The notes under the pieces were generated by a model. The model had not been told where the DNA came from and made no database searches. It worked only from the letters and a program-made list of their open reading frames with translations. A DNA stretch of 52,629 nt from a virus, in the IMG/VR virus record IMGVR_UViG_3300009494_000004, positions 1-52,629 of that record; one strand, 5' to 3'. The translations under genes were made by a program, and so were the position numbers. This document shows positions 1-51,890 of this stretch, piece after piece (position 1 is the first letter of the stretch; each line of letters begins with the position of its first letter).

Positions 1-342
1 AATTACTTTGCGCAATAGATGACTTGTATTTCAAGTACCAAATACACCACCGCCTGCCCGAATACCCTGCTGACCGACTGAAGACCCGTGAAGGTCGTCC
101 CCTGGACCTCTAAGATCGTTCTTGCGCAGTAACGCCAAGAATAACCTTAAAGCGAGCAGGGAAGCCCGCTACAGCACGCTGGTTGCCGCTCCCCCTGAAC
201 ACCCCGCTGACCGGCTGGAGGCCTTCAGCGACCGGGGCGTCGCCTCATACTTTTCTCACACGCGTGCCGGGCGGGTGTTTAACAGTTGAACATGTTTGCC
301 CTCGTGTTTGCCTCATACTTTTCGCCCGATTTCGGTTAAAAG
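1..342. repeat. 342-bp unit X, terminal copy. Exact duplicate of 52288..52629, so either the assembly overlap of a circular/concatemeric genome or a true direct terminal repeat.
   Basis: The first 342 nt and last 342 nt of the window read identically. The same unit occurs again at 502..843. Confidence 0.9.
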
Positions 343-361
343 TACGAGAAAAGTATGAGGC
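310..361 (+). other. Hairpin with a perfect 14-bp stem (gcctcatacttttc / gaaaagtatgaggc) and a 24-nt loop that holds a mini-hairpin ccg-attt-cgg
   Basis: 310..323 is the exact reverse complement of 348..361. The 3' arm (346..361) is also a 16/16 complement of the motif copy at 242..257. Confidence 0.7.
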
Positions 362-390
362 AGAAATGCGCAATTGTTGAACAACGGCCA

Positions 391-498
391 GGGCGTCGCC
401 TCATACTTTTCTCACACGCGTGCCGGGCGGGTGTTTAACAGTTGAACATGTTTGCCCTCGTGTTTGCCTCATACTTTTCGCCCGATTTCGGTTAAAAG
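391..498. repeat. Extra copy of the 108-bp 3' sub-unit Xb (identical to 235..342 and 736..843)
   Basis: The verbatim string gggcgtcgcctcatactttt...cgcccgatttcggttaaaag appears three times inside 1..843 and once more in the terminal copy. Confidence 0.9.
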
Positions 499-501
499 AT
501 A

Positions 502-843
502 AATTACTTTGCGCAATAGATGACTTGTATTTCAAGTACCAAATACACCACCGCCTGCCCGAATACCCTGCTGACCGACTGAAGACCCGTGAAGGTCGTC
601 CCCTGGACCTCTAAGATCGTTCTTGCGCAGTAACGCCAAGAATAACCTTAAAGCGAGCAGGGAAGCCCGCTACAGCACGCTGGTTGCCGCTCCCCCTGAA
701 CACCCCGCTGACCGGCTGGAGGCCTTCAGCGACCGGGGCGTCGCCTCATACTTTTCTCACACGCGTGCCGGGCGGGTGTTTAACAGTTGAACATGTTTGC
801 CCTCGTGTTTGCCTCATACTTTTCGCCCGATTTCGGTTAAAAG
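502..843. repeat. Second full internal copy of the 342-bp unit X
   Basis: Reads identically to 1..342. It is separated from its neighbours by the trinucleotide ata (499..501 and 844..846). Confidence 0.9.
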
Positions 844-846
844 ATA

Positions 847-965
847 AATTACTTTGCGCAATAGATGACCTGTATTTCAAGTACCGTATACGCTGCCGCT
901 CACCGCTGGTTACCGAATACCCTGTCGACCGGCTGGAGGCCCGTGGAGGTCGTCCCCCGGCCCCC
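847..965. repeat. Degenerate partial copy of unit X
   Basis: The first 39 nt (aattactttgcgcaatagatgacctgtatttcaagtacc) differ from unit X at one base. Beyond that the copy diverges, mostly by transitions, but keeps the ccctg.cgaccggctggagg.c..gg.ggtcgtcccc sub-repeat. Confidence 0.7.
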
Positions 966-1022
966 CAGCGACGTTTTACGGCTAAGCAGCGGGCGGCATA
1001 TCGGCTCGCCGATTGTAACCAG

Positions 1023-1060
1023 ATATAGGCTGTCGCCTTCATTATATAGGCGTTCGCCTA
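1023..1060 (+). promoter_or_regulatory. Two direct repeats ATATAGGCnnTCGCCT spaced 22 bp apart, 65-100 bp upstream of promoter-like motif P1
   Basis: atataggctgtcgcct (1023..1038) and atataggcgttcgcct (1045..1060). Confidence 0.3.
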
Positions 1061-1124
1061 TTGTTTTTGCGATTTTTTCAGAAGGCTTTTTCGTTAAGTC
1101 GCTATCGATAGGGCGGTTGCGTTG

Positions 1125-1144
1125 TTGGCACAGTATTCGCTTAC
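1125..1144 (+). promoter_or_regulatory. P1: sigma-54-type -24/-12 promoter-like motif TTGGCAC-N5-TCGCTTAC
   Basis: ttggcacagtattcgcttac matches the TGGCAC-N5-TTGC spacing (GG..N10..GC). The sequence is nearly identical to the minus-strand motif at 46517..46536 and related to the one at 51891..51910. It lies upstream of the plus-strand gene cluster. Confidence 0.5.
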
Positions 1145-1183
1145 TATATAGTTATGAGCAACCACACTGACAAGGAGAACGTT

Positions 1184-1372
1184 ATGTTAAACCAACTGAA
1201 AGCAGAAGGCCTTATTTGGCATTTCGGCGACTCGCTCGTTACGCGCACGACCGACGGCATTAAGTTTGGTCTCGGCGACGAGAACGATACGGTAGATATT
1301 GAGCAGTTTCTGCGCACGTATTGGGACGTTGACCTCAACGGCATTAACGTGACCGCCCCGAACGTTTGGTAG
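1184..1372 (+). CDS. Hypothetical small protein
   Basis: The track ORF is 1154..1372. The internal ATG at 1184 is preceded by AAGGAGA, and it shares the 14-nt initiation region aggagaacgttatg with the gene at 2352. The ATG at 1154 remains possible as a near-leaderless start. Confidence 0.5.
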   Translation: MLNQLKAEGLIWHFGDSLVTRTTDGIKFGLGDENDTVDIEQFLRTYWDVDLNGINVTAPNVW

Positions 1373-2351: not shown

Positions 2352-2657
2352 ATGGACAAACAACCTTGGGAAATGACAAAAAAAGAGTTTCAGCAAAGTC
2401 TTCAGGCAAGGCGCGAAAAGGCCATTGAGGAGTGGAACGCTGTTGGATCGAAGGGATTTCCGCCGGGGGTAAGAATAGGGACTGTAGGTGATCGAATAAG
2501 GCTGGCCGAAAGCGCCGGATACAAACTGCCTCGTGACGATGATTTGATAATGCGAATGGACATTCACAGACTTTATGTAGAAGCCGCTTACGCTACGGGC
2601 AAACTTATTCCGATCAACGTTCTGAAAGATTACCCTAAACTGACGTTAAATAAATAA
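2352..2657 (+). CDS. Hypothetical protein
   Basis: 101-aa ORF with the strong Shine-Dalgarno GAGGAGA. Its 3' end overlaps the convergent GT2 gene by 12 bp. Confidence 0.5.
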   Translation: MDKQPWEMTKKEFQQSLQARREKAIEEWNAVGSKGFPPGVRIGTVGDRIRLAESAGYKLPRDDDLIMRMDIHRLYVEAAYATGKLIPINVLKDYPKLTLNK

Positions 2658-3338
2658 CTTCGGTTCGCCGGTTCGCCCGTCCCAAGACCGTTGCCTGCCG
2701 CCCGTATGTTCAATTACCGAATCGGGGTGAACCGAAGCGTTCCGGTAGCCGCGTCGCAGCGCGTTCCTAAAGTAGCTTGTATCAACCGTTCGTATAAGCC
2801 GCCGTGTATCCCAATTCCCGTTTGCCTTAAATGCCGCTGCGGATATGAACACGCAACAGCCGGGCGGAAACCTGTAGACATTAATAGAAGTTGTTGGTCC
2901 AGTTTTAACGTCAAGTTGATGTTTCGGCCACGAAAGGCCGCTCAATCCACATAGCGGCTTCTTGTCCAGATGTTCGTGTTCTTTATAGGTAGTCAATAGT
3001 GTGTGCAACCAACCTGGTAGAAATCTGAGGTCACTATCGCAGAATAAGAAATAATCCGGTTTTCTAACGTCAAATTTGGCGCAACGTTCGGCAGCTATTC
3101 GCGCACCGAGATTCCAAGCGTACGGCTTCCCCATATTTTCGTTCAACAGGACAAGTCCAGCTATTACATTTTCGCGGTATTGCATCAAGACGTCTATAGT
3201 CTTTTGTCCGCTCCCGTTGTCGACGACTGTGACGTCAACGAGGTTGCGGTCTGTCGTCTCGGTTAGCGTTTTGAGCGTGCCTGCCAGTAGAGCGCTTCGC
3301 CCAAATGACGTCATAACGAGAGCTATTCGCTCACTCAT
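2646..3338 (-). CDS. Family-2 glycosyltransferase (GT-A fold)
   Basis: N-terminal VMTSFGR...VTVVDNGSGQKT, NENMGKPYAWNLG and a DxD-type FCDSDL motif are typical of GT2. Start is coupled to the endolysin stop (ATGAGTGA). Confidence 0.7.
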   Translation of the reverse strand: MSERIALVMTSFGRSALLAGTLKTLTETTDRNLVDVTVVDNGSGQKTIDVLMQYRENVIAGLVLLNENMGKPYAWNLGARIAAERCAKFDVRKPDYFLFCDSDLRFLPGWLHTLLTTYKEHEHLDKKPLCGLSGLSWPKHQLDVKTGPTTSINVYRFPPGCCVFISAAAFKANGNWDTRRLIRTVDTSYFRNALRRGYRNASVHPDSVIEHTGGRQRSWDGRTGEPKLFI

Positions 3339-4686: not shown

Positions 4687-7600
4687 TTATATCGTTTGAG
4701 CACCGAGTTCGGTCATACCGATAGTACCGTCTCCGTCGCGTATTGTTTCGATTATTATAATTTTCCAGAACTTATGCGATTCCGTCCCGTCACCGTCTCC
4801 GCGAATTACTATTGTGTCGACGGATGTCGAGTCTATTCCCCCGTTAAGAACTGTTCGTGTCGTACCCCATTGAGTCCAGCCTAATACAGAATTATCGTCG
4901 CTATAATAGATGCGGCACATACCGTCTATTAAACCGGGATACGCTATTTCGCGATCGAGATTTATAAGAAATGACGCGGCCAAAGCCAACTGAACCGCGC
5001 TGCTCCATTCGAGACAATAGTGATCCTTGATTGCTATATAACCGTCATCGCTGCCGATTTCCACGGCAAGGTTTTCGTCTGTCATTTTTTCGTACCACGG
5101 AATAGTGACGTTTTCGTCCCACGAAATTGTGGGCGTATGCTGGATGTATCTTCCGCGTGGAAATTCATCTGGAACAACTGTTGCGGTCAGTTCGGTCAAA
5201 CCGAAATCAGGGGATGGCGCACTGTCGCCCGTCCAGATATTAACCCAAAATTTCCAATATCTATGTGATTCGTCCGCACTGCCATTTCCGTTAATGACAA
5301 CCGTGTTTCCGTCTATTATTATCCCTCCGGTGCTTCCGCGTACTTCTATTCCCCACCGCGTCCAACTTGAATTATTGTCACTCCAGGAGATATAGACTCT
5401 GGGATCTCCGGCAAGCGGTCCAGTTAGTGCTCGATCCGCGTTTGCGATAAACGTCTTAAATATACTTAACTCGACTGCATTTTCAAATTCAAGGCAGTAG
5501 TGGTCACCAACCTCTATAAATCCGTTATCGCTGCCGATCTCCGTATCCGTATCGCCGTCGGTCATCAGCGTGTTCCACGGAATAGTGACCGGCGTCTCGG
5601 ATACGTCAAAGATGTATCGGCCCCAGGGTTCCGGTTCCGGTGACGGACTCGGTGAAGGCGACGGAGACGGAGACGGAGACGGAGACGGAGACGGAGAAGG
5701 TGAGGGTGACGGGCTTGGACTTGGTGATGGACTTGGCAGAGCTGCTTCGTACAACTCTACCGCCGTAATCGTTACACTATCCGTTCCCTTTTCGGTGTTG
5801 GTCACGAGAAGTCGTTTATCTCCCCAACTCGCGCCATAGGCCTTCTTCAGGTCATCGATGTCCTCGTGGAACTCCACCCAATCGCCGGTTTGCAAATGCG
5901 AATGCGAGAATCCCGGCGTCACGAATTCCACCTCAATATGTTCCTTCGACCAAATGCCGTCTACGCTGTTGACGTAATGCTGCGCGACATGTTGTGCGCT
6001 GGTTCCAAGTACGTTCTTCCAGTCGAACGATGCGTGCCTTTTCATAACGAGGCTGATTGAATCATTGTCCGTGTAGTTGTCGTTGTTGAGGAACCGTCCG
6101 TATTCTCCCTGCCAGCGCGAACGTACGTCCATGTCGTTTATGATGAACGTCGTTTTTTTCATCTTAAAGTCATCACCGACAAGTTCCCCCCGCCTGATGA
6201 CCGCGTTTGTTGTCGGCGCTTTGTCGTTGAGTGGAATACATCGGAGCTTGCCTGCACCGGACATAGAAACGACGAACGTGCTTTGTTCGGATAGCTTCTG
6301 CGTTATCGCGCTAATTTTCGTTTTTTGAGTGACGTTTAGTCTTGCATCCACGTTCGGGTTTTTGGCGGCGGTAAAACTCGCCAGATCGATGTCGTCTCCG
6401 GTAAGAGAGAAGAACTCTTGGTAAAGCATTTTTATTATGGTTGCCGGGTCTATTGTATATCCACCTTCCGTATAACCCCGCGCGCTTACCCATACTTCAT
6501 GTTGGAACGGCATGGTGAGTATGTAACGGAGTTTTACGCCCGATATAGATGCTACTGTCTGGTTTCCGACGACACTGTCCGCGACTCCTGTTCCACCGAT
6601 TGTTCCTGAATGAATAGCTACGCCGAGCGCCCATTTTCCACCTATCGCTTCGGTTCCTACATTCGACGCGACGAACGGAGGATTTTCGTCGTTCGGGTAT
6701 TTCCAGGATAGACTATCGAGCGCGATAAGGTCATTGCCCGTCCCTCCAGCGGCAGCGTTTTTTGCATATCCTATAAGCAATCGTTCGTCCCCTCCGTCAA
6801 GGCCGTAGTAGAGCCAAAGCTTCAATTTTGCCAACTCGGCGTCCGGCCAATCCACTGATTCAAGTAGCCTATACCCCACTTTCACGGTTCCACCCATGAG
6901 TAGATGCTTTTTGAGTGTCGCTTCATGTTGTACACCGAATAACGCCAGCCCTTCGCCTGTTGTTCCGTTGTCCGCAAAGCGGTCTTTGAAGTTGCACGGT
7001 AGCCAGTACATAAAGCTTTCCAGCTTTTCACGCTCGGACTCCGGCTCTTTGTAACTTTCGTCATCGTATACGCCGGGCAGGTCCTTGTCCGTATAGAAGT
7101 CAGCGACGACGTTTTCGCCCACCCATATCCATGAAACGTCGCCGTCATAATCATTGGATTCGAACGCACGGCACGGCAATATCGTAAACGCGCCAGTTTT
7201 TCGATACGGTATACCGCAGGATGTTACAGGATAATCTGATACCACGAAATACCCGTTAAGTGCGCCCGTGTACGCAATCGCCTTCGCCAGTCCCGTCGCT
7301 ACGGCCGAATTGTCCACGTCCTCGTAGATGTCCGCGACGTCGAAATTCCCGTACAGCAACGGTATCGGCTTTGTCAAGTTTGCTTCCGGCGCGTTCGGCC
7401 ACTTGTCGCCGACGACTCGTTCCGGCACGGACAAATCCCAAAGTTTGCTTCGATCCTTCGCCGTAAATCTTGCCGTACGTCGATCGGTCTCCAGTGATTG
7501 AAGCACGAAGCCGTCGAACACGAGCAAGCAGTCGTCGATGTCCGTTATGCCGTCTACCCACTGGTACGACTTGCACGTCGCGCCGTTCAAGTCTTCAAGC

Positions 7601-7890
7601 AGTTCGGAGGCGCGGATGGGGCGTCCGCCAGATTGTGGATAAAATTTCTCGTCCGACAACGTGAATGACATATTCGACGTCTGCCAGCGCTTCGATGTAA
7701 TGTCGATTCCTTCTTTTATAGCGCTCTGCTTGAGGAGTATCGGGTACACCGGCGCGGTGTTCAGTCCGCGCGGCATTGGGCGCATGGAGAAGTAGTACGT
7801 GGATCCGCTGATAGTCACGGCAAGCACGACGTCCCGCTGATGGCCTGCGACGGCGGCGTAGGTTTCAAAAAGGTCGCTACGATCAAGCAT
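4687..7890 (-). CDS. Tail tip / host-specificity fibre protein with a (PS)n linker and two duplicated C-terminal lectin-like modules
   Basis: About 1070 aa and the last large tail gene. A 37-aa PSPS...PEPEP linker is followed by two paralogous ~155-aa modules (GRYI..IPW..MTD..EIGSD.G.I...DHYCLE...ESH.(Y/F)WK). The ATG at 7890 has a GGGGGA Shine-Dalgarno; the track start is 7905. Confidence 0.75.
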   Translation of the reverse strand: MLDRSDLFETYAAVAGHQRDVVLAVTISGSTYYFSMRPMPRGLNTAPVYPILLKQSAIKEGIDITSKRWQTSNMSFTLSDEKFYPQSGGRPIRASELLEDLNGATCKSYQWVDGITDIDDCLLVFDGFVLQSLETDRRTARFTAKDRSKLWDLSVPERVVGDKWPNAPEANLTKPIPLLYGNFDVADIYEDVDNSAVATGLAKAIAYTGALNGYFVVSDYPVTSCGIPYRKTGAFTILPCRAFESNDYDGDVSWIWVGENVVADFYTDKDLPGVYDDESYKEPESEREKLESFMYWLPCNFKDRFADNGTTGEGLALFGVQHEATLKKHLLMGGTVKVGYRLLESVDWPDAELAKLKLWLYYGLDGGDERLLIGYAKNAAAGGTGNDLIALDSLSWKYPNDENPPFVASNVGTEAIGGKWALGVAIHSGTIGGTGVADSVVGNQTVASISGVKLRYILTMPFQHEVWVSARGYTEGGYTIDPATIIKMLYQEFFSLTGDDIDLASFTAAKNPNVDARLNVTQKTKISAITQKLSEQSTFVVSMSGAGKLRCIPLNDKAPTTNAVIRRGELVGDDFKMKKTTFIINDMDVRSRWQGEYGRFLNNDNYTDNDSISLVMKRHASFDWKNVLGTSAQHVAQHYVNSVDGIWSKEHIEVEFVTPGFSHSHLQTGDWVEFHEDIDDLKKAYGASWGDKRLLVTNTEKGTDSVTITAVELYEAALPSPSPSPSPSPSPSPSPSPSPSPSPSPSPSPSPEPEPWGRYIFDVSETPVTIPWNTLMTDGDTDTEIGSDNGFIEVGDHYCLEFENAVELSIFKTFIANADRALTGPLAGDPRVYISWSDNNSSWTRWGIEVRGSTGGIIIDGNTVVINGNGSADESHRYWKFWVNIWTGDSAPSPDFGLTELTATVVPDEFPRGRYIQHTPTISWDENVTIPWYEKMTDENLAVEIGSDDGYIAIKDHYCLEWSSAVQLALAASFLINLDREIAYPGLIDGMCRIYYSDDNSVLGWTQWGTTRTVLNGGIDSTSVDTIVIRGDGDGTESHKFWKIIIIETIRDGDGTIGMTELGAQTI
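5626..5736 (-). repeat. Low-complexity (Pro-Ser)n/(Pro-Glu)n linker coding repeat, including six tandem GGAGAC hexamers on the plus strand
   Basis: gacggagacggagacggagacggagacggagacgga is read directly. It translates on the minus strand to PSPSPSPS...PEPEP. Confidence 0.85.
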
Positions 7891-7892
7891 GT

Positions 7893-9920
7893 CTACATCC
7901 CCCATGTTCCGTAGTTGGTTTTCGTGGCCGCGTATCGTGTTGACACATCGGCGTCGGTGAGGGCTGTTCCCTTAATAACGTGTATTTCGTCTATTTTGCT
8001 GGTACCATCCTGGTACGTACCTACGAACATATAAACGCCGGTCGTCTCGTGTATATCGCCGGTTACCGTGGAAATATCACTTTCGTGTACAAACGTGCCA
8101 TCTACGTAGGTGCGCATCGTATTATTAGTGCGACTTACAGACATCGTCAACAGGTGGTATTTTCCGTCGTTTACAGCGGGTCCGTGTCCTTGATCTAAAA
8201 TTTGGGCAACATTGTCCCCGACGACGACGATTATCTTGGTTCCGTTAACGGCTAAGACAAACCCACCAGTGGAGCAATTGAAGTGATTGACTGATCGACG
8301 AAACACGCCCAGATGCGCGCCGGTCATGGCTACCCACGCCTCGATAGAAAAATTGTCGGTTTCCATGTTGAATTCGATTCGATCCGTACTGGTCATTCTC
8401 AGGTATTTTCCGCCCGTCAAGTCTACCACGGACGTGCCTCGTTCGAGGACACCGTGCTCATATACGACTGAACCGCCTATTATGTCGTTCCAATCGTAAC
8501 CGTTCATGCTGGAATCCATCCAATCATTACGAAACCGCCACAGAGCGAATGTATCCGCCATCGACGTCAGACTTCCCTCCGAATACGGCACACGCTCGAA
8601 TCCCATCTCTCTCAGCAGCAGTCGGGGTTTGCGGTATTCGCCCATGAATCTGTTCTCCGCGAGCGGTGAGTCGAACGTCACCGCGTAAAATGCGTCTGAA
8701 CCAAGTTCCGTCTTCATAATGACAGGCAAGTTACCGCCGCGCGACGCCTTGTACGCGCTAAACAGGTTTGTCCATTGCCCGGTATCGCCCGTCAGATCGA
8801 ATCTCCGCTCAATCATCCGCTGTCCGCCGACGCCCGCTGACGACGAAAATCTGTGACCGGACCTCGTGACGGATACGTTATTGCGATACAGACGCTTGTT
8901 GTTTTCTGGATGTTGATGCGACCAGGGGAGCGAATAGTCGTTAAGTGTCCATACGGCGGACACTTCCGGGTACAGGCCTACAGGCGCGACATCGAAATTA
9001 TTGAACGTTACTCTCCAATACCGGGCGGCGGTCGGCTCGAACGCGGATAGCACGACGGCGCGGTATTCGTGGTCGAACTCCACGGCGTCCAACGGGATGT
9101 AGGTTACGTCGTCCACGCTGAAGGCGATCTGCCACGTCTTTCCTCCAAAGTCATACATTTCATTGTAGTTGTGTAGCCACAGCGCCAGCGCGTCGACCGT
9201 TTTTTCGGCACCGAGGTCTATATATAGCGAATTAGTTCCCCGGTCGTCTGGCATCCACCACGTGTCGGGGTTGTTGTCGAGCGCGTATTTCGCGTCATGA
9301 CCGAACTCATGCCCGGTTACGTTCCGTCCGTTCGTTATTACGGGTACGGCGTCTACAGGGGCGTAGAGGTTGCCCGGCGTTACATGCGACGGCGCGTACA
9401 GGTATTCCGCGTATAGGCACCAGTTATAGTGGTTGGCTGCGCCGAGGTCGCCCAGCGGGTCGTTGAACGCGGTCTCCGCGTCCGCAACCGCTTTGCCGTC
9501 GTTTGAGGTGGGATCAACGACATAAAAGACCCTCAACCCATAGCCCGCGTCCGACGTATCGTATGATATAAGCGCCAACGCCTTCTTGCCCGCTGTGAGC
9601 GAAAGGTTGCATCCCACACTGCACCACTCCCCGTTGTGGTGTCCTTGGTCTGAGATTGTAATTTCTGGCGATATGGCCTCCACAGTCCAGTTTTCCTCGT
9701 CAGGGTTGGATGCGTCGTAGACGGCTATTTTCACGTGAGCGAAAGTAGCATTTTCCCACCGAAGGCGCGCCCATACTTTTGTCACGACGCACGCGGGGAC
9801 ATCTGCGTCCCACGCGCTCACGATTGAGTCAACGTCGAAGTGACCGAATTCCATCAACGCAGTTATTTCGTTCTGCTGGCTCCAGATTTCATACGAGGTG
9901 TTGCCGAACGTCGCTTCCAT
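7893..9920 (-). CDS. Tail protein with a discoidin (F5/8 type C)-like domain and a C-terminal LamG/concanavalin-like lectin domain
   Basis: ALDNNPDTWW...SLYIDLG...ARYWRVTF resembles discoidin domains. FSIEAWV...GGFVLAVNG...DGKYHLLTMSV...YVDG resembles LamG. The ATG at 9920 overlaps the upstream TGA by 1 nt (TGATG); the track start is 10031. Confidence 0.65.
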   Translation of the reverse strand: MEATFGNTSYEIWSQQNEITALMEFGHFDVDSIVSAWDADVPACVVTKVWARLRWENATFAHVKIAVYDASNPDEENWTVEAISPEITISDQGHHNGEWCSVGCNLSLTAGKKALALISYDTSDAGYGLRVFYVVDPTSNDGKAVADAETAFNDPLGDLGAANHYNWCLYAEYLYAPSHVTPGNLYAPVDAVPVITNGRNVTGHEFGHDAKYALDNNPDTWWMPDDRGTNSLYIDLGAEKTVDALALWLHNYNEMYDFGGKTWQIAFSVDDVTYIPLDAVEFDHEYRAVVLSAFEPTAARYWRVTFNNFDVAPVGLYPEVSAVWTLNDYSLPWSHQHPENNKRLYRNNVSVTRSGHRFSSSAGVGGQRMIERRFDLTGDTGQWTNLFSAYKASRGGNLPVIMKTELGSDAFYAVTFDSPLAENRFMGEYRKPRLLLREMGFERVPYSEGSLTSMADTFALWRFRNDWMDSSMNGYDWNDIIGGSVVYEHGVLERGTSVVDLTGGKYLRMTSTDRIEFNMETDNFSIEAWVAMTGAHLGVFRRSVNHFNCSTGGFVLAVNGTKIIVVVGDNVAQILDQGHGPAVNDGKYHLLTMSVSRTNNTMRTYVDGTFVHESDISTVTGDIHETTGVYMFVGTYQDGTSKIDEIHVIKGTALTDADVSTRYAATKTNYGTWGM

Positions 9921-16125: not shown

Positions 16126-16530
16126 CTACCTCCAGAATATCTTCGTCATGTAATTTTGCATCAGCTTCCTGACAGCCATTTTCGTACTGATGACTGCTTT
16201 GGAGACGTAACGTTTTTTCGGTATTTTCGTCGCATGGTTCCGTCCGGTCCAGCCGCCAAATTCGTGGATCGCGGCGTAAACGCAATCACTGCCAGCCGAC
16301 ATAACCCATCCCTGGTTCGCGGCGGCTATCTGCCATGACCACGAGTCGTGGAGTCTTCCTGTACGTTTCATCAGCACGCGATTAGACAGGTTGCGCCGAA
16401 TCGCCTTGGTAAGTTTGTCGCCTACTTTAGCAAGCTGTAGCGGTAAATCGCCGAGGTTACGTAGCGCATTCTCCAGCGCGGGGCACTTGAACCGCTTTGG
16501 CTCGGTTTTCATGTAAAAGGTAAGGCTCAT
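16126..16530 (-). CDS. HK97 gp10-like head-tail joining protein
   Basis: CVYAAIHEFGGWTGRN resembles the conserved YA..(H/Q)EFG motif of the HK97-gp10 family. Start is ATGA-coupled. Confidence 0.55.
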   Translation of the reverse strand: MSLTFYMKTEPKRFKCPALENALRNLGDLPLQLAKVGDKLTKAIRRNLSNRVLMKRTGRLHDSWSWQIAAANQGWVMSAGSDCVYAAIHEFGGWTGRNHATKIPKKRYVSKAVISTKMAVRKLMQNYMTKIFWR

Positions 16531-18074
16531 GCCATGAATCCCCTTTGCGCGTCTTTGTCGTCTTTTCTTCGTTTTTTCTCCATTTCAAATAGGAGTTTTT
16601 TTAGCCGCTCGAAAAGCGCGACGTCAAATAGAAAAAGTTTGCGTTTCACGTCTCCAGCGATATGTCCGGTCGCCGACATCGTATCCAAGCGCCTTTGCGT
16701 AGTATGGCCAGTCGCGTCTACGGCGTCCGAACGTTTTTGCAGCGTATGGCCTGTCACGTCAATGCTGTCTTCTCGCGTTTCTGGTGATGGAGGCGGCGAA
16801 GGACTTGGCGATGGACTTGGCGAAGGCGCTGATTCGACGTGGCCTGTCGCGTCCATAATGTCCGACCGCCCCTGTAGAATGTGGCCTATCGCGTCTATGG
16901 CGTCCGAGCGTTCCTGCAACACGTGGCCTGTCGCGTCCATAATGTCCGACCGCCCCTGTAGAATGTGGCCTATCGCGTCTATGGCGTCCGAGCGTTCCTG
17001 CAACACGTGGCCTGTCGCGTCCATAATGTCCGACCGCCCCTGATGCACCGTCGTACTTATGAACGATGAGTCGTCATTAACGCGAATACCGAATATTCCA
17101 AGCCCGACTCCTGTGTGGGAATACTGAAAGTCGAGCCTTAATCTATTACTACGCATTCCCGCCGTCCAGTCCTTTCCAGCGATTTCCAATATAAATGGCG
17201 TCATGTCGTACCAAGGAGCGTCTTTCCATTCACTCCAGTCCGAATACTCAAGCGGCGTACCGTCATTTGATATCCGTGTTATACGAACACGAAGATGCAA
17301 ACCGCTGGCCGCGTCGCCATACGGTTTTATGGTGACGATCCAGGGACCGGTCTCCCAATCATCGTTATACGGATCGTTCGCTTCCGTATAGAAATACGAC
17401 GTTTCGGTCTCACCAGGATTGACAGTAGACATCAACTCCGTCATCCCGTCGGTGACGCGCAACAACTTCTTGTCGAAATCGTCGCCGGGTTCCTCTAAAT
17501 CCGAATTTGAGTCGGTGAGTATGAGTTTCGGTTCCGTGAATAGCGGAGCTACATGACCTATCGCGTTTATTTCGGCGAAGTACGGACTATATGTCACCTT
17601 AACGTATATTTGTGTACATTTTATATTATTTCCCATTTTAGAGCCACCCCCTGATGACGACTCTACGCCGATCTGTAGAGTGCCGAGGTCCGTCCAGTGC
17701 CAATTGCCGCCGTTCGGCCTGGAGAGTTCTTGTGTATATTCCGCCCAGCTTCCGGTCAACGTCTCCGTGGAGCCGTGCGTCATAGCGCCGTTGAGGTATA
17801 CCAATGGCGCTATTTTTCCGCTTCCCTCGTTTAACCTGCCCCAGAATACGACCTCAATTTTTTCGACGTGCTGCGTTCCGTGCGTCCAACTATCTAACGT
17901 AAATATGTCACATTCATTTGAACCGTTTGGTATCGTCACTCCGTCATCGTCAATACATGTTGTATTGCCGTCCTGTGTTATCTCGTCTACCTGTTCCCAG
18001 TGTGCAGCAAATAGCGGAAAGTCCCATCCGGTAGCCGCGCCGACTCCGTTTGGCCTCAATATCTGGATTGACAC
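16527..18074 (-). CDS. Virion-associated protein with an N-terminal beta-rich domain and a C-terminal array of eight 14-aa repeats split by a PS linker
   Basis: GTG start with GGGAG upstream. The C-terminus reads (G/E/K/R)RSD.(M/I/V)DA.GH.LQ eight times, with APSPSPSPSPSPPPSPE in the middle. Confidence 0.6.
   Translation of the reverse strand: MSIQILRPNGVGAATGWDFPLFAAHWEQVDEITQDGNTTCIDDDGVTIPNGSNECDIFTLDSWTHGTQHVEKIEVVFWGRLNEGSGKIAPLVYLNGAMTHGSTETLTGSWAEYTQELSRPNGGNWHWTDLGTLQIGVESSSGGGSKMGNNIKCTQIYVKVTYSPYFAEINAIGHVAPLFTEPKLILTDSNSDLEEPGDDFDKKLLRVTDGMTELMSTVNPGETETSYFYTEANDPYNDDWETGPWIVTIKPYGDAASGLHLRVRITRISNDGTPLEYSDWSEWKDAPWYDMTPFILEIAGKDWTAGMRSNRLRLDFQYSHTGVGLGIFGIRVNDDSSFISTTVHQGRSDIMDATGHVLQERSDAIDAIGHILQGRSDIMDATGHVLQERSDAIDAIGHILQGRSDIMDATGHVESAPSPSPSPSPSPPPSPETREDSIDVTGHTLQKRSDAVDATGHTTQRRLDTMSATGHIAGDVKRKLFLFDVALFERLKKLLFEMEKKRRKDDKDAQRGFMA
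16837..17042 (-). repeat. Perfect 84-bp tandem repeat, 2.45 copies, inside CDS 16527..18074
   Basis: 16837..16920 equals 16921..17004, which equals 17005..17042 (partial copy), read base by base. Confidence 0.9.
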
Positions 18075-24915: not shown

Positions 24916-25688
24916 GGGGAATCTCCCTTCGTAAAGAATATCTTCGCAATGCCACCTTGCGCAGTGACCTTATTGACATTGATTTCGTCAACAGGGCGCG
25001 CGAACTGCAATCCGTTTGTTGTCATAAATGTAGTCATTTCTTTTATACCATAACCGTATCGTCCGAAATGTTCCCGGTAGTATTCGATAAGCACGAGCAA
25101 CCGATCGTTTGCCTTTATAGTATTTGCCATGCCGTTCATCGCGTTCAGCTCTGCGCCCTCTACGTCTACCTTTACGAAGTCGAGTGTCTTTGGTCCGTTG
25201 TCGGTAGTCGGAATATTGTCTATGGCGATACCGTTACAGGAAGGCGCAGCCGAAAGCTTTTCACCGTTTTTCAACTGAAGGTCGATTTGATTTGTTACGT
25301 AGTGCCTCGCTGGACCGCTGTCCGTATGCAACGCCAATTTTGCGTTTACGTTCCACGCTGCGGCGCATACTGGTACGACGCCGTTTATTCCACGGCTTCT
25401 AAGTAATTCCGCATTCTCACAAAGCGCCTTATAACTGACTGTGTTCGGTTCAAACGCATAAATCACTCCAACGCCATAATGGGTGTACTCGTTGGCGAGA
25501 AATACGGACCAAAGACCAACATGCGCGCCGAGATCGAGTGATACGTGCGCCAGTGTCCCCTTTCCAAACCGCCAGTGGAGGTATTCAGCGACGATGGCCC
25601 TTTCCTTACCTTCATAGTTGGGCAATTCACAAGGTCCGCAACCTTTATAACCGCAAGTCGATAGGCCTGTGTCTTTTAAACATGCCAT
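24906..25688 (-). CDS. FkbM-family SAM-dependent methyltransferase
   Basis: LDLGAHVGLWS...YAFEPN...LDFVKVDVEGAELNAM is the FkbM (Methyltransf_21) pattern. The gene is inserted between terminase and portal. Confidence 0.7.
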   Translation of the reverse strand: MACLKDTGLSTCGYKGCGPCELPNYEGKERAIVAEYLHWRFGKGTLAHVSLDLGAHVGLWSVFLANEYTHYGVGVIYAFEPNTVSYKALCENAELLRSRGINGVVPVCAAAWNVNAKLALHTDSGPARHYVTNQIDLQLKNGEKLSAAPSCNGIAIDNIPTTDNGPKTLDFVKVDVEGAELNAMNGMANTIKANDRLLVLIEYYREHFGRYGYGIKEMTTFMTTNGLQFARPVDEINVNKVTAQGGIAKIFFTKGDSPWR

Positions 25689-27424
25689 TTTCGTTTTCTC
25701 TCCTTCGTGTTCTCTTCCGTTCCGATAACGGCATGCGTATCACCGCCAATTATTCGCGCCTTCGATTCGGGTTTCCGCACCTTCGCGCTGTTAGCGAACC
25801 ACACTCTGTCGGACGCAACACTGTTCGTCATTCCGCTTACGAACCACGCGAGCCATCTATACGCCGCTGAATGGAAAAAGTGGTCACACCCTTTCGTCCA
25901 TACCGGCCTTCCGCCCGCGTCGGTTACGCGACTCGGCACGGTCATCTGCCTTACGTACTCGCCGTTTGCCCTCGTGCGCCAGTCCGGCGGTATCCTCGTG
26001 TTGCCGTCCTTATATGACTTCACCATAAGGTCAAGTAGTTCCGTGCGGTTCGTCTCCAGTATCTGCTTTTCGTACTCCCTGTTGCATACCGGCGTCTTGA
26101 TCTGATCTTTCGCCCGGTAATAGCACATCCAGCGGAAGCCCTTCTTTTTCACGAAGTCGCGCGTCTCCATGTAGCCGCCGCCCTGAGCATCGATGACGTG
26201 GCTCACTACGTTGAAGGTCTCCTCAAGCGTCTCAACCTCCGCCCACCTGTCGACTTCCGTATGGATTATATCGTAAAGGACGCTATTCAGCACTATAGAT
26301 ATCGTGCATGTAAATTTCTTCCCCTGATCCGTGCCCATTACCGTACGGTACGCCTCCGCGTCAAATACGGTCGGCAGCTTGGTCGCGGCCTTCCGCAATA
26401 GCGCCTCGTCCATTTTGAACTCGACATCCTCGTATTCGACGGCGAGGTAATTGTTATGAAAGTTCTGCATCGCCGTTGGGTTGTTCTCGGCCTTCACGAA
26501 TTTTTTGAACAGCTTTATGATGTCCGCAGCGACGCCGCGCTTGTCGACGAACAGCCTCGATACGCGGTATCCGCTCGCAAGCCCTCGTCCGGGGTTCATT
26601 GCTATCCAACGACCCGGTCCCGTGCGATCCATAGGCGCGCCGCATTTCGCGCACGCCGCCATACCGGACGGGTGACGGAGCCGCCAGCCCGCGTCGCAGC
26701 GCTCAACGAAGTTAATGTACCAGTCAAGAACCTGCTCGTGACCACATTCCGAACAATCTACGTGCCATTCCTTCTGGTCGCTCTCCGCGTACTCGGCGAG
26801 AATACCGAAGCCCTCGCGTGTCGGGTTTCCATACTTCCACACGTGCGGACGTTTCGAGTTTTCTAAACGGTCGTATGCGTATAGAATGTTTTCCTGGTTC
26901 AGCAGATCGAACTCGTCGAAGAACAGAACGTCGCACGGAAACTCGAAGAAGTCAGCGAGCACGTTCGACCCGACGAACTTCCAGCCCGCGCCAAAGAACG
27001 ACTTGTACACATTAGAGTCGAACTTCTTTTCGTCGAGGTTTTGCACAGCCTCCGTGTATAGCGGCGAGCGCGCCTTCATTTTATCGATACGGTCATATAC
27101 AAACGTTTTGCGTGCCGTGCCCGACGGCATGACGTACATTCCGCGCAGCCCCTGCCTCGCGTATGTATACATCGCGCAGAGCGCATGCTCCGTGAGGTGT
27201 ACCTGCGAGCTTTTCACGACAACCAGGTCGCGGCTGTCGTCTTTATATATGGCTGCAAGCCAAGGTTTATCAGAAAACGTCATCCGCGACCCGTTCGTCG
27301 TCCGGTGGTGAACGATGCCCATGAACAGACGAGGGTATTTGTCGGCCATCTCGGACATCCCCGCGCCTATCAACTTTTTCGCTTCTCTATTCGCACTTGG
27401 CATTGTTGGTTTCTTTTTTAGCAT
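25676..27424 (-). CDS. terL: Terminase large subunit, GpA (lambda)-like
   Basis: 582 aa with a Walker-B-like VLFFDEFD and a CSECGH...CAKCG zinc ribbon typical of GpA-type terminases. Canonical position. Confidence 0.8.
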   Translation of the reverse strand: MLKKKPTMPSANREAKKLIGAGMSEMADKYPRLFMGIVHHRTTNGSRMTFSDKPWLAAIYKDDSRDLVVVKSSQVHLTEHALCAMYTYARQGLRGMYVMPSGTARKTFVYDRIDKMKARSPLYTEAVQNLDEKKFDSNVYKSFFGAGWKFVGSNVLADFFEFPCDVLFFDEFDLLNQENILYAYDRLENSKRPHVWKYGNPTREGFGILAEYAESDQKEWHVDCSECGHEQVLDWYINFVERCDAGWRLRHPSGMAACAKCGAPMDRTGPGRWIAMNPGRGLASGYRVSRLFVDKRGVAADIIKLFKKFVKAENNPTAMQNFHNNYLAVEYEDVEFKMDEALLRKAATKLPTVFDAEAYRTVMGTDQGKKFTCTISIVLNSVLYDIIHTEVDRWAEVETLEETFNVVSHVIDAQGGGYMETRDFVKKKGFRWMCYYRAKDQIKTPVCNREYEKQILETNRTELLDLMVKSYKDGNTRIPPDWRTRANGEYVRQMTVPSRVTDAGGRPVWTKGCDHFFHSAAYRWLAWFVSGMTNSVASDRVWFANSAKVRKPESKARIIGGDTHAVIGTEENTKERKRKWHV

Positions 27425-30770: not shown

Positions 30771-30999
30771 AGTAGTACCCCTATTTCTTGGAGTTCTTGT
30801 AACTCTTGCAATGGGTTACGGAAGTTGAAATTTCAGTCAAATTGACGAAAAACCGAGTCCTTGTAACTCTTGTAACGACTTACGCGGATTTGAAATATAT
30901 TAAAATAGCTAACTCGTTGCAGGAGTTGCAAGAACTAAGGTTTTCGTTATTACCGTCAGTACGGACCAGTAGCTAACTCGTTGCGGGAGTTGCAAGGAC
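30771..30999 (+). repeat. Element A: 229-bp internally palindromic element with four 23-bp boxes (two forward, two reverse) around an AT-rich centre. Inverted homologue of 51983..52212.
   Basis: Boxes GTYCTTGYAACTCYYGYAAYGRS at 30793..30815 and 30857..30879 (forward), and at 30913..30935 and 30977..30999 (reverse). Box spacing is 64/56/64 bp and the centre is atttgaaatatattaaaata. Flanks also align with the reverse complement of element B. Confidence 0.8.
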
Positions 31000-32443: not shown

Positions 32444-33222
32444 CAGATGCTATCCTTGTCTTCGTTGTCTTCGTTGTTTTCGTCATACAAATACGGATCA
32501 ACATGCGTTTCGTCAATTGACGCCAGTCTGTCCCGTATTGCCGTCTGCACGGCTTCAAGCAGATTGTTTAGCTCCGCGAGCGACAGCGCAGACAGGTTAA
32601 GGTTATGCAGGCCGCCAAGTTCCTCTCGCCAAACGAGAAGCATCTCGCCAACCGTCTCGGCGGTTATTTCCACGGCTTTTGGATTCGCGATAAGTACCCG
32701 ACCACCGGACGCGGACAGAGCGGCGCGGTCGGCATCAGCGGATACCTCTTTACGGACCTGTTCCATCAGCATACGAATCTGCGCGACATCGTCATGGATC
32801 GTCTGTACGGTAATGTACCCCTTGCTGCTTTCATGTACCGTATCTTCGCCGCCGCTCTTTTCGATACGTTCCATCACCGTGTCTATTAAATCCGATAACG
32901 CTTGCGCGCGGGCCTTCATTCCAGCCCAATGAACATCCTCAAGTGTGGCCGCCCAAATATCATGTGCTTCGACAAGCTCAGCCTTTGGTATGGCGGAGCA
33001 CCGTTTGAGAAACGTATTGCAGCCGTGCGCCTCTGGATCGAGACCGGAAAACCCGTTTGTTGTCCCGAATGTCGGATCGGTTAGCTCCCTGTAAAGTTCC
33101 GTCGGTTTAGCCCAAGTCGCCAGCGCGTTGACGATGTAATGTCGCACTTTTGCAGGCCAACGCGGCGTCTGTATCCGTGCGTTCTTTTTTGGTCGTCCGC
33201 GTTTCCGTTTTTTGTCAATCAT
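32443..33222 (-). CDS. AT-hook / DUF2280-like DNA-binding protein (possible small terminase; low confidence)
   Basis: KRKRGRPKK AT-hook, then VRHYIVNALATWAKPTELYRELTDPTFG, which resembles the N-terminus of DUF2280-type putative small terminases. Acidic C-terminus. Confidence 0.35.
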   Translation of the reverse strand: MIDKKRKRGRPKKNARIQTPRWPAKVRHYIVNALATWAKPTELYRELTDPTFGTTNGFSGLDPEAHGCNTFLKRCSAIPKAELVEAHDIWAATLEDVHWAGMKARAQALSDLIDTVMERIEKSGGEDTVHESSKGYITVQTIHDDVAQIRMLMEQVRKEVSADADRAALSASGGRVLIANPKAVEITAETVGEMLLVWREELGGLHNLNLSALSLAELNNLLEAVQTAIRDRLASIDETHVDPYLYDENNEDNEDKDSI

Positions 33223-35510: not shown

Positions 35511-35809
35511 TGTCGTCTCCGTTTAATACGCCGCAACCCCGGCCACAATTTTACAAACGTGTAGTAAAGCAAAAGCGCCAGCCAAACCGCGTTTGCCACA
35601 ACAACGGCTACGCCGCCAATAAATGACAACCACTGTCCGAGATGCGGATAGTAAAACAGGTTCCAGCCGCCCCACGCGGTAAAGAACGCTACCGCAATCC
35701 AACTGACACCCTTAACCTGCCTGTCGATAAGCAATCGACGCACGTTCAGCATAACAAACAACGCGCCGCACGCCTCAAGTATTCCATTGATCGTATCAGG
35801 CCACGTCAT
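35507..35809 (-). CDS. 3-TM membrane protein with a SemiSWEET/PQ-loop-like layout (tentative)
   Basis: 100 aa with three hydrophobic helices. The pattern LN-VRRLL..R.VKGVS, W..NLFYY and VANAV parallels the PQ-..VLKTRS...IS, LW..YG and SNAV of bacterial SemiSWEETs as I recall them. Confidence 0.35.
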   Translation of the reverse strand: MTWPDTINGILEACGALFVMLNVRRLLIDRQVKGVSWIAVAFFTAWGGWNLFYYPHLGQWLSFIGGVAVVVANAVWLALLLYYTFVKLWPGLRRIKRRRH

Positions 35810-36669
35810 TTCGTTTGACTCTCCATCCGTATTCCGAATCCGAGTAGAAGCGCGACAAGTGTATCCTTAATAGTATTGTCTGGTTCGGAAAGGAACCGCG
35901 TCCCAGCGACAGCTTGTACATAGTTCCTTATTACCGATTCAGTTTCATCAATGAGATCCGCCGCCGCGCGCCTGACGAGATGCTCGTCCGCGGCGGCGAT
36001 ACATAAATCCCTCACGTCAGCACGCGGAATGGTAGCCTTTCGCAGTTTTTGCGCGGATTTAACAATCTCCGGATCAAGCGTCAATTCGACAAATCTGTCA
36101 TAAAATAGGTCGGCGGCTTCGTTATAGTCAAGTTTACGGAACGTAAATTCGTCTATAGCACCGTCATACGACATCGCCATGTTGAACTTCAGGTCATCTG
36201 ATGGATTTGCAGACATCAAATGCTTATATTCCGTGACATTCATTATCTGATCTGCCTTTGTAACATAAGGACTTCTTTTAATTGGCAGACCGAATGCCTC
36301 GGCGACAACCGGCTCCCATATCCGTTCCAGCGCTTTATAGGAATTGAGCAACGATTTTAACGGACGCGATACGTCGCCAAGGTACGCTTCCGCCGCGTCG
36401 TGCATAAGCGCTTCAAACTGCAACATCCTCTTCTGCTTGTCTGTCATAGCGGCCAACTCCTCCGGGGGGACCAGAGAAAGCACCAGGTTCGCGCACTCGA
36501 CGGAATGCTCGGCAACACTGTAAAAACCGTTCGTATAGCCGGTAAACCGGCACTGTGCACCCAGCGACTGCGCAATATCCCTTATGTCGATGATACCAAC
36601 ATGCGGCCTTAAAAGGTTAACGGATATCCCACTTCCCGTCGCAATAATCGGTTCGGTTGTTTGTTTCAT
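35806..36669 (-). CDS. HD-domain phosphohydrolase, YfbR-type 5'-deoxynucleotidase / dNTPase-like
   Basis: FYSVAEHS...LMHDAAEAYLGDVSRPLK reproduces the H...HD...D metal-ligand pattern of YfbR-like enzymes. The ATG at 36669 has AAGGAGAG upstream. Confidence 0.65.
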   Translation of the reverse strand: MKQTTEPIIATGSGISVNLLRPHVGIIDIRDIAQSLGAQCRFTGYTNGFYSVAEHSVECANLVLSLVPPEELAAMTDKQKRMLQFEALMHDAAEAYLGDVSRPLKSLLNSYKALERIWEPVVAEAFGLPIKRSPYVTKADQIMNVTEYKHLMSANPSDDLKFNMAMSYDGAIDEFTFRKLDYNEAADLFYDRFVELTLDPEIVKSAQKLRKATIPRADVRDLCIAAADEHLVRRAAADLIDETESVIRNYVQAVAGTRFLSEPDNTIKDTLVALLLGFGIRMESQTK

Positions 36670-36686
36670 GTTTCTCTCCTTAATAT

Positions 36687-51882: not shown

Positions 51883-51890
51883 ACGCTAAG

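Follow-up and report, generated by a model that had tools for sequence, protein, structure and literature searches.

A nested tandem repeat array in the control region of an uncultivated tailed phage, consistent with a young, lineage-specific duplication of noncoding DNA

Spontaneous tandem duplications are known in the genomes of lambda, T4 (rII), and T7. Iteron-type origins with a second, distant copy are represented by lambda ori, SPP1 oriL/oriR, and P4 ori/crr; lambda cosB contains the small-terminase sites R3-I1-R2-R1; and Correia and RUP are MITE-like elements. Here, we compare with these systems a repeat array in a 52,629-nt stretch of viral DNA (the window). The window comes from an uncultivated tailed phage, a lytic-type siphovirus that encodes its own primase-helicase (33215–35257) and PolA.

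The repeat array and its surroundings

The array lies in a gene-free region of ~1.59 kb (51883–52287 plus 1–1183) flanked by a minus-strand HNH gene on the left (51319–51882) and by small plus-strand genes starting at 1184 on the right. The region sits at the boundary where late/lysis genes end and early genes start. A preliminary description of this DNA saw a nested, noncoding tandem array in a gene-free region between divergent transcription units, and both the exact repeats and the gene map bear this out. The only open reading frames in the array are, as had been stated, translations of the repeats: none exceeds 65 amino acids inside one repeat unit (X), and longer ones are read-through of the repeats.

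The stretches 1–342, 502–843, and 52288–52629 are 100% identical, an exact repeat far above chance expectation. The one at the right end, seemingly a third X, is the same DNA as copy 1, as the two form an exact 342-bp terminal overlap of the contig. The circular map of 52,287 bp thus contains two full X (1–342 and 502–843), one extra copy of sub-unit Xb on the plus strand (391–498), a 48-bp spacer (343–390), and one diverged head that follows the second X. ATA linkers are found at 499–501 and 844–846, and the period of the array is 345 nt. Elsewhere on the contig there is another perfect recent tandem repeat, an intragenic one of 84 nt × 2.5.

We scanned X against an nhmmer profile of the orthologous region. 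Positions 1–122 (plus strand) match profile positions 18–158 (E = 1.5e-17) and constitute a paralogue of the head of the noncoding unit A described below. Segment U1 (123–192) lies outside the nhmmer matches and has no detectable homologue, with no match in relatives, GenBank phages, plasmids, or Escherichia coli. In positions 193–234 (plus strand), part of the GC-rich middle block of A is present a second time (profile positions 93–134, E = 4.5e-5), with a 15-nt exact match between 209–223 and 927–941. The remainder, 235–342 (plus strand), is Xb, whose 108 nt are 100% identical to 391–498 and whose last ~20 nt resemble, by reading, the flank upstream of the first X (GCCCGA..AAAAGAT). The GC-rich sub-repeat of ~35 nt noted earlier, which corresponds to 193–234, is genuine but modest, as X 58–108 and 196–246 agree in 36 of 56 aligned columns. 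The GC content of X is 46–70% in 100-nt windows, and no AT-rich block is present.

Each Xb contains two direct copies, 68 nt apart, of the 14-mer GCCTCATACTTTTC. The motif occurs seven times in the array, in three unrelated sequence contexts and in both orientations (242–255, 310–323, 348–361 inverted, 398–411, 466–479, 743–756, and 811–824), at irregular spacings of 68, 38, 50, 68, 277, and 68 nt. All 14 positions are identical across the three contexts, while the 40 flanking bases match at only 9–12 positions. The inverted copy belongs to the 48-nt spacer, which is indeed unique, as the preliminary description had it, but not featureless. Together, 310–323 and 348–361 can form a long hairpin or cruciform, with a perfect 15-nt inverted repeat and a 24-nt loop; the DNA fold of 300–372 has an energy of −16.7 kcal/mol (z = −4.6). 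The only other occurrence of the motif, TTTGCCTCATACTTTT, is located at 36937–36952 (plus strand) inside a MazZ-like gene and matches the b-site at 16 of 16 positions; ~0.017 matches with at most one mismatch are expected per genome.

Two predicted promoters of one family flank the region. The leftward promoter PL (51894–51920, minus strand) reads GGCAC-N5-TAGCT, and the rightward promoter P1 (1125–1152, plus strand) can be read either as TTGGCA-16-TATAGT (sigma-70) or as GGCAC-N5-TCGCT (sigma-54–like −24/−12). A further predicted promoter is located at 46.5 kb. Between PL and the array lies element B (51982–52230), composed of four 27-mers, two direct and two inverted, which are 64–65 nt apart and contain nested palindromes, followed by the conserved CAAGAAATAGGGGTACT and then by a GGGC-TATATAA-GCCC palindrome. 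Element B is duplicated at 30771–30999 (B2). A likeness of the A-head to the sequence that follows B2 was considered and found not significant.

The orthologous region in related phages

Four relatives (L122, L129, L132, and L133) are informative at this region. Contigs of four others (L123, L124, L130, and L131) end before it and were left out; L121 and L126 (by gene maps) as well as L165/L166 are not syntenic here, and L125, although it has a B-like array, has diverged too far for A to be compared. The neighboring proteins of the relatives are 60–84% identical to those of the window, and no relative is closer than 84% protein identity.

All four informative relatives share one layout: PL, palindromic B, a single A with a terminator-like hairpin, and P1. 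The A unit is ~330 nt of noncoding DNA with a conserved 45-nt head, a GC-rich block, and an intrinsic terminator–like hairpin, and its head is located at a fixed distance of ~50 nt from B in all relatives. In the window, the original A is 847–1183 (plus strand; alignments with relatives, blast to L122 and L129), which consists of the A-head, the GC-rich block, the hairpin with a T-run (1046–1078), P1, and a leader. It aligns with the single A of the relatives from end to end, whereas X aligns only over 1–122 and 193–234. What had been described as a degenerate copy is therefore not a decayed duplicate but the orthologue of the relatives’ single copy. The GC-rich block points the same way: the diverged copy retains the states of the relatives (CCGG, GGCC, and GTATAC), while X carries G>A changes, as expected of a redundant copy. 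The first 39 nt of X and 847–885 are identical at 38 positions. Over X 1–125 and 847–975, there are 102 matches, 12 transitions, 4 transversions, and 18 gap columns, i.e., ~86% identity (102 of 118 ungapped aligned positions), in line with the earlier remark that the last copy differs mostly by transitions.

None of the four relatives contains Xb or, when all four were scanned, the 14-mer, and X 111–342 has no blast match in the relatives tested (L122 and L129 among others). Broader searches agree. Blastn of 1–1200 or 1–500 gave no match in GenBank phages, plasmids, and E. coli genomes. The 14-mer alone has at least 120 single chance matches in IMG/VR; as a pair, it was found neither in IMG/VR nor in GTDB genomes, and in JGI metagenomes it retrieved two unrelated tandem repeats (L127 and L128). 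Patterns for the A-head, the A GC-block, the end of B, and P1 gave no or only chance matches in IMG/VR or GTDB. Overall, the comparison reveals what a little-known phage group has conserved as the core of this region, namely PL, B, the A-head, the terminator, and P1, to which the X array is an add-on. Of the repeated elements here, B rather than X is the conserved one.

Origin of the array

On balance, we favor a young, nested tandem duplication of noncoding DNA in the control region, specific to this lineage, as the explanation of the array. Its copies are arranged head to tail, sister lineages have a single copy, and the junctions contain short homologies, with AAAAGAT[A/G]AATTAC common to the array and the ancestral flank. 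The preliminary description offered recent duplication or ongoing homogenization as the source of the 100% identity. The former is the best reading, as the four closest relatives lack the array but have retained the remainder of the region. The latter cannot be separated from assembly collapse: any collapsed repeat would be printed by an assembler as identical copies, so 100% identity is weak evidence for homogenization. The practical lesson is that perfect identity of copies says little in a short-read assembly.

The ancestral order would have been PL, palindromic B, one A of ~330 nt, and P1. In the lineage of the window, the first ~122 nt of A and ~20 nt of its upstream flank may have been copied ahead of the original and joined to a second fragment of the GC-rich block and to ~160 nt that have no homologue, giving the 345-bp period. 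This unit would have been duplicated again very recently into two identical X, with a partial copy (Xb) and the 48-nt segment with the inverted site between them. These steps could be explained by recombination, either illegitimate or unequal, or else by template switching in replication, with AAAAGAT[R]AATTAC and GCCCGA as the short homologies involved, and may have taken place while the phage replicated as concatemers. The duplication would be tolerated because the region is the one large noncoding stretch of the genome, and the array is probably dispensable. Its effect is probably modulatory: it would triple the A-head, add seven 14-bp sites, and shift P1 ~0.85 kb farther from B.

The age of the array is to be read with some caution. 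One copy at ~86% identity means that the first duplication event was not recent, and, with four informative relatives, the array could predate “very recent” and have since been lost or never sampled. The ~160 nt of X match no known source. An origin of X 111–342 from a decayed downstream tail of A plus genes g1 to g3 was rejected, as Smith-Waterman scores were at the level of shuffled sequences, and a 12-nt match of X 324–335 to 1753–1764 in g3 (E = 0.85) was taken as chance. A duplication in L133 is independent and begins at the same A flank; its two copies (1002–1100 and 1758–1856) are 97% identical with a period of 756 nt, and its junction lies in a CCTGTYGACC microhomology.

Alternative explanations

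How many copies an exact repeat of 342 nt shows, and in what order, is a matter of how the assembler resolved it. The array could be an assembly product in which a mis-resolved repeat or a threaded strain mixture yielded a wrong order or copy number; the real genome would then have one X or some other number, with the 342-bp “terminal repeat” arising as a by-product. The contig begins and finishes in the repeat, as happens when extension stops in repeats, its copies are 100% identical, as expected from collapse, the related L133 scaffold is interrupted by Ns exactly at its duplication junction, in the corresponding place, and no second assembly of the phage was found for comparison in the indexed collections, exact look-ups of window proteins included. 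We nevertheless consider this explanation unlikely. The contig contains three distinguishable junctions (B-ATG-X, Xb-ATA-X, and Xb-ATA followed by the diverged copy) as well as the X-spacer and spacer-Xb junctions. The junction Xb-ATA-AATTAC...GACT is unlike both the B-X junction (ATG) and the junction with the diverged copy (C at 870), and thus the tandem order rests on its own junction sequence. Junctions are not something that a k-mer assembler makes up, and the sample must therefore include at least one genome in which a full X head comes immediately after Xb. Circular contiguity across the region is confirmed by single contigs of relatives that span the lysis genes, the gene-free region, and the early genes. 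The 342-bp overlap of the contig ends is itself a property of the assembly: this “direct terminal repeat” belongs to a tandem repeat in the interior of the genome and is not to be mistaken for a physical terminal repeat, and the overlap alone is no proof of completeness. A real array could, alternatively, be a functional protein-binding array of seven GCCTCATACTTTTC sites, six direct in 68-nt pairs and one inverted, that resembles iterons or operators and whose amplification was selected for site number. The binder would be a lineage-specific phage protein (g2, 1382–1627; g4, 2070–2282; or the HNH protein) or a host protein, and the role of the array would be to adjust divergent early transcription or the start of replication at B. 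The motif suggests a putative protein-binding site and argues against pure junk: its constancy amid random-level flanks, in both orientations, and the near-copy at 36937, which is improbable by chance, hint at selection and sit uneasily with neutral filler. Moreover, g2, g4, and the HNH gene are, like the motif, found only in the window among the relatives, the position between two divergent promoters and beside B fits regulation, and multiplicity could have been selected, as a conserved 40-nt core is intact in all three A-heads. On the other hand, g2 has no homologue among 5.8 billion proteins and an unusable AlphaFold model (pLDDT 58), so it was set aside as a DNA-binding candidate; g1 to g5 have no Pfam match, and g1 to g3 and g5 no PHROGs match; the sites are irregularly spaced; and four of the seven are owed solely to the latest 100%-identical duplications. 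Any function would also be new and nonessential, because the 14-mer is missing in relatives. Derivation of the 14-mer from a diverged tail of the conserved terminator is plausible by eye but gave no nhmmer match. We regard a protein-binding array as possible but doubtful. The further proposal of a newborn nucleoprotein platform, in which nested duplication produced a seven-site array and three A-heads that control early transcription, replication at B, or packaging, and in which the binder might be the orphan g2, g4, or the HNH protein peculiar to this lineage, is distinctly unlikely; if true, an iteron or operator array would have been caught arising de novo. Should the 14-mer prove to bind a protein, this locus would illustrate, cleanly and on a small scale, how duplication gives rise to repeated cis-sites.

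The remaining readings, proposed in the preliminary description, assign the array a role as an iteron origin or partition site, a packaging region, or a repeated structured RNA. A role as an iteron origin is contradicted by the relatives, in which X and Xb, the novel segment, and the 14-mer are all missing although neighboring proteins are 60–84% identical: a conserved essential cis site should occur in such relatives, and the array is thereby ruled out as a conserved origin or packaging site of the phage group. Element B fits such a role better. GC skew, tried as an origin indicator, is monotone, tracks transcription, and is uninformative. A partition site finds no partner genes, as no ParA/ParB, integrase, repressor, or other lysogeny or plasmid genes were detected among 40 window ORFs (Pfam and/or PHROGs). 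A packaging or terminus function would imply that X or the conserved A-head marks a genome end or terminase recognition region, either a short direct terminal repeat or a cos/pac site with cosB-like small-terminase sites, with the extra copies being duplicated termini. This suits the location at the late/lysis-to-early boundary, the gpA-type TerL (PF05876/PF20454), and the A-head kept at a fixed distance from B, and the short sites in direct and inverted orientation recall cosB. The nearest GenBank TerL matches (~25% identity, too low for inferring packaging type) include that of Acinetobacter phage EAb13, whose direct terminal repeats are 2,177 bp long (PMC10508131). However, only the 45-nt A-head is conserved, and Xb and the 14-mer, being absent from relatives, cannot be terminase sites of the group; the terminase genes are 25 kb away, and the two scanned ORFs upstream of TerL include no small terminase (one matches a methyltransferase, and the other has no match). 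We judge this function very unlikely. Lastly, the region could encode a structured or regulatory RNA, with a rightward transcript that ends at the conserved terminator and to which X adds repeated modules; for example, six GCCUCAUACUUUUC seeds are complementary to the MazZ-like mRNA at 36937–36952. The terminator-like hairpin with its T-run, shortly before P1 on the plus strand in an aligned stretch that relatives conserve, implies some rightward transcript through A, and complementarity to the MazZ-like mRNA is perfect over 16 nt. Yet, Rfam gave no match at E ≤ 1 over 1–1300, nor did any reach gathering score in the window as a whole; the RNA folds of both strands have z-scores of only −0.85 to −1.5; and no tRNA or tmRNA was found. 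Furthermore, the A-head was rejected as a sigma-70 promoter, having no consistent −35/−10 across relatives, the target site is mid-gene and away from the ribosome-binding site, and X is missing in relatives and hence offers no homologues for covariation. An RNA of this kind appears extremely improbable.

Comparison with known systems

The array shares several traits with functional repeat loci. As in the iteron origins of lambda, SPP1, and P4, its short repeats lie in noncoding DNA between divergent early promoters. Unlike them, X is lineage specific, with no conserved site array in relatives, its 14-mers are irregularly spaced and have no AT-rich element beside them, and no link to an initiator is known. 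The description of an iteron origin suits B, with its four 27-mers, 64-nt phasing, conservation, and paralogue at 30771–30999. As in lambda cosB, asymmetric sites of ~14–16 bp occur in direct and inverted orientation in noncoding DNA of a phage with a gpA-type large terminase; unlike those of cosB, they are far from the terminase genes and not conserved in relatives. Similarly to Correia and RUP, the 120 nt from 242 to 361 are bounded by perfect 16-nt inverted repeats, but the segment has no target-site duplication and no other copies in this genome, in relatives, or in the phage, plasmid, and E. coli collections searched.

The closest counterparts are the tandem duplications of lambda, T4 rII, and T7. 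The array differs from them in being nested (at least three rounds), in its ~160 unexplained nucleotides and inverted segment, and in having one copy that diverged to ~86%. Like them, it is head to tail with short-homology joints, its newest copies are identical, it would lie in dispensable DNA, and, as the duplication in L133 illustrates, such events are recurrent.

Genome layout and anatomy of the repeat array

The first 342 bases of the contig are the same as its last 342, and the map is thus circular at 52,287 bp. A siphovirus-like gene set occupies the minus strand from ~51.9 kb down to 2.6 kb and encodes an HNH endonuclease (51319–51882, 187 amino acids), a Vsr-like nuclease, an Mre11/SbcD-like exonuclease (49001–50305), several methyltransferases, PolA (37192–39264), a primase-helicase (33215–35257), Cpn10, a gpA-type large terminase (25676–27424), portal, capsid/protease, tape measure, and tail proteins, and a family-2 glycosyltransferase (2646–3338). 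The same unit carries a MazZ-like dATP/dGTP diphosphohydrolase domain (PF18909), an HD-domain protein, a thymidylate-synthase homologue, and three glycosyltransferases (35806–37220, 39221–40066, 41100–43179, and 2646–3338), a combination that suggests modified-base DNA that is possibly glycosylated. Five small plus-strand genes (g1 to g5, 1184–2657) are convergent with the end of the minus-strand unit. Pfam and/or PHROGs scans of 40 window ORFs detected no integrase, repressor, or partition genes, and no close phage was found in GenBank, the best large terminase (TerL) matches being ~25% identical.

Two repeats lie within minus-strand genes. An 84-nt perfect tandem repeat of 2.5 copies (16837–17042, with a 42-nt half-period at 72%) encodes a 28–amino acid repeated unit (…GRSDIMDATGHVLQERSDAIDAIGHILQ…) of a 515–amino acid protein without a family match (gene 16527–18074). 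A hexanucleotide repeat at 5638–5712 encodes a (Ser-Pro)n linker of ~17 dipeptides in a 1072–amino acid protein (gene 4687–7905).

The gene-free region covers 51883–52287 and 1–1183, about 1.59 kb, and its ORFs are short or represent repeat read-through. The repeats reported there in the preliminary description are present, with corrections. The full copies of the 342-bp unit X (1–342 and 502–843) are indeed 100% identical, as are the 108-bp sub-unit Xb within X (235–342) and its second copy (391–498); the spacer at 343–390 is unique. ATA linkers occupy 499–501 and 844–846, and a diverged A-head, the conserved start of a non-coding unit A, begins at 847. This last copy differs from X 1–125 mainly by transitions, as had been claimed (102 matches, 12 transitions, 4 transversions, and two indels). 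The apparent third X at 52288–52629 is the contig overlap, and the circularized map holds two full X, not three. The overlap should not be taken as a physical terminal repeat. Packaging by terminal repeats is hinted at solely by phage EAb13, a 25% TerL match with terminal repeats of 2,177 bp (PMC10508131).

Comparison with relatives and origin of the array

Relatives were traced via homologues of the exonuclease and g3, and four contigs span the gene-free region: L122 and L129 from JGI sample 3300042089, and L132 and L133 from ENA metagenome assemblies. The exonuclease is 84% identical to that of the window in L122 and about 84% in L129. All four relatives share a layout of leftward promoter PL, palindromic element B, A-head, GC-rich block, terminator-like hairpin, rightward promoter P1, and conserved leader. 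The A-head (AAAAGATGAATTRYTTTGCACAATAGATGACYTGTATTTCAG) is a conserved ~45-nt block about 50 nt past B; the hairpin with its T-run was scored in the window, and the aligned stretch is kept in relatives.

The "degenerate copy", window 847–1183, aligns along its entire length to the A unit of relatives; it is therefore the original unit, to which the perfect X copies were added. With a profile of the orthologous region, X 1–122 matched A positions 18–158 (E = 1.5e-17) and X 193–234 gave a second match to the GC-rich block (E = 4.5e-5), while X 123–192 and X 235–323 gave no match. The proposal that the duplication is recent is supported: the A unit is single-copy in four of four relatives, X 111–342 has no match in them (L122 and L129 tested, among other loci), and a 14-mer motif of the array is absent from all four (L122, L129, L132, and L133 all tested).

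Several smaller features were observed in this region. The A-head starts with a possible 6-codon mini-ORF (52285–52305; ATG AAT TAC TTT GCG CAA TAG, MNYFAQ*), which may be chance. Among the A-heads of L129, L132, and L133, the peptides MNYFSY*, MNHFAQ*, and MNCFAQ* occur, and some differences are synonymous. The stop is missing in L122, and in the two internal copies of the window ATA replaces ATG. The conserved leader (ATGAGCAAYCAYRCTRACAAGGAGAAC…ATG; window 1154–1186) is repeated in relatives before successive small plus-strand genes (L122 7656–7690 and 7836–7872; L133 1360–1401 and 1624–1665). What these genes share is either a 5′ UTR that includes a ribosome-binding site or an N-terminal peptide, MSNH(T/A)(D/N)KEN. 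The HNH gene adjoining the gene-free region is found in the window only; the corresponding position in relatives is taken by a small Cys-rich ORF, about 70 to 80 amino acids long (compare L122 ~8600–8830, L129, L130, and L133), and this segment appears to be a hot spot of gene replacement.

A 342-nt exact repeat is longer than usual k-mer sizes, so the order and copy number of the array depend on the assembler's resolution, and a collapsed assembly would likewise show X copies that are 100% identical. A pure artefact is countered by the junctions present in the contig: three that lead into an A-head and can be told apart (B-...GATG-AATTAC...GACT, Xb-...GATA-AATTAC...GACT, and Xb-...GATA-AATTAC...GACC), along with X-spacer and spacer-Xb junctions. 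These require real molecules in which a full X head comes after Xb. Single contigs of relatives run from lysis genes through the gene-free region to early genes, which confirms that the map continues across the contig ends; in the relatives, holin- and peptidase-like genes lie immediately upstream of the glycosyltransferase orthologous to 2646–3338.

Illegitimate or unequal recombination, or template switching, would have built the array in three or more rounds. An old duplication would have copied the flank and the first ~122 nt of A. Over ungapped aligned positions, this copy and the original A now share ~86% identity, and in the GC-rich block the copy carries derived states, the original having those common to relatives. 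A second round would have added a second GC-block fragment and the Xb sequence internally, and a very recent re-duplication would have yielded the two identical X, separated by a partial Xb and a diverged inverted segment. The final ~20 nt of Xb (GCCCGAtttcggTTAAAAGATA) are similar to the upstream flank of the first X (GCCCGAcaCCAAAAGATG), so the 345-nt period starts within ancestral flank sequence. An independent duplication in L133 (~756-nt period; 1002–1100 and 1758–1856, differing at 3 of 99 positions) starts in the same flank upstream of the A-head, and its junction, inside g3, has a 10-nt microhomology, CCTGTYGACC. The L133 scaffold is broken exactly at the duplication (N-run at 1857–1956; 1714–1757 equals 1957–2000). 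Together with the 84-nt repeat of the window, this case speaks for a general process here and not for a designed structure. The description that fits the array best is a young, lineage-specific, nested non-coding tandem duplication, another case of an already known kind of event.

Functions considered for X and the 14-mer

The functions put forward for X in the preliminary description found no support. That the array is missing in relatives whose flanking proteins are 60 to 84% identical rules it out as an essential origin or packaging site of the group; with no partition or lysogeny genes, a partition site is likewise without support. Nor was there evidence for a structured RNA: Rfam gave no match at E ≤ 1 in 1–1300 and none at gathering score in the whole window, tRNA and tmRNA were absent from the window, and folding z-scores were −0.85 to −1.5 (X on both strands; A unit of the window and L122). 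X-like DNA was not found in GenBank phages, PLSDB plasmids, or E. coli genomes. Local alignments of X 111–342 as decayed downstream genes scored at shuffle level, and no consistent sigma-70 promoter was found in the A-head across relatives.

The circular map has seven occurrences of the 14-mer (GCCTCATACTTTTC): six on the plus strand (242, 310, 398, 466, 743, and 811) and one on the minus strand (348). These represent three independent contexts (site a, site b, and the inverted spacer site), whose 40 flanking bases agree at only 9 to 12 positions, a random level, with the core identical at 14/14. A further match in the MazZ-like gene (36937–36952) is 16/16 to the b-site and 13/14 to the core, with a chance expectation of ~0.017. 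Together with the inverted site, site b makes a long hairpin or cruciform (DNA fold −16.7 kcal/mol, z = −4.6) whose basis is a perfect 15-nt inverted repeat enclosing a 24-nt loop. These features of the 14-mer speak for some function; they are the pattern of a putative sequence-specific protein-binding site, and the duplication may have created a small array of such sites. The window has three genes that relatives lack, namely g2, g4, and the HNH gene. A search of 5.8 billion proteins gave no homologue of g2, whose structure model was unusable (pLDDT 58).

Promoter family and element B

A promoter family with an invariant core, GGCA(C)-N5-T(N)GCT, lies directly upstream of gene blocks in the correct orientation, at 1127–1141 (plus), 46520–46534 (minus), and 51894–51908 (minus) in the window and in relatives at L122 7890, 8554, and 14078, L129 8683, L123 2304, and, by alignment, the P1 sites of L129 and L133. 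The core fits sigma-70 (TTGGCA-16-TATAGT) no better than it fits the sigma-54 −24/−12 consensus (TGGCAC-N5-TTGCW). Of the sigma-70 elements, the −10 hexamer and the first two bases of the −35 differ among copies, whereas GG and GC are constant. Sigma-54–dependent promoters would be unusual for phages, and we found no report of them in the literature.

Element B (51982–52230) is kept in all close relatives (L122 8233–8510, L129 8368–8640, L133 708–975, and L132 1314–1587), the L132 version having a different sequence with 132-nt palindrome arms. It contains four ~27-nt sites (AGTCCTTGTAACTCCCGCAACGACTTA), two direct and two inverted, at 64-nt spacing in nested palindromes. After the sites come a conserved GAGAAA[T/G]AGGGGTACT (also given as GAGAAATAGGGGTACT) and a GGGY-TATATA-RCCC palindrome, the latter co-varying between genomes. 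Of 73 predicted pairs, 9 show compensatory changes, which would fit either a hairpin or protein sites. A paralogue at 30771–30999, 21 kb away on the opposite strand, is 80% identical. Because it is conserved, regularly phased at 64 nt, and has this oppositely oriented paralogue, B would be a better candidate than X for an iteron-type origin, and B with its distant paralogue can be likened to oriL/oriR of SPP1 or ori/crr of P4.
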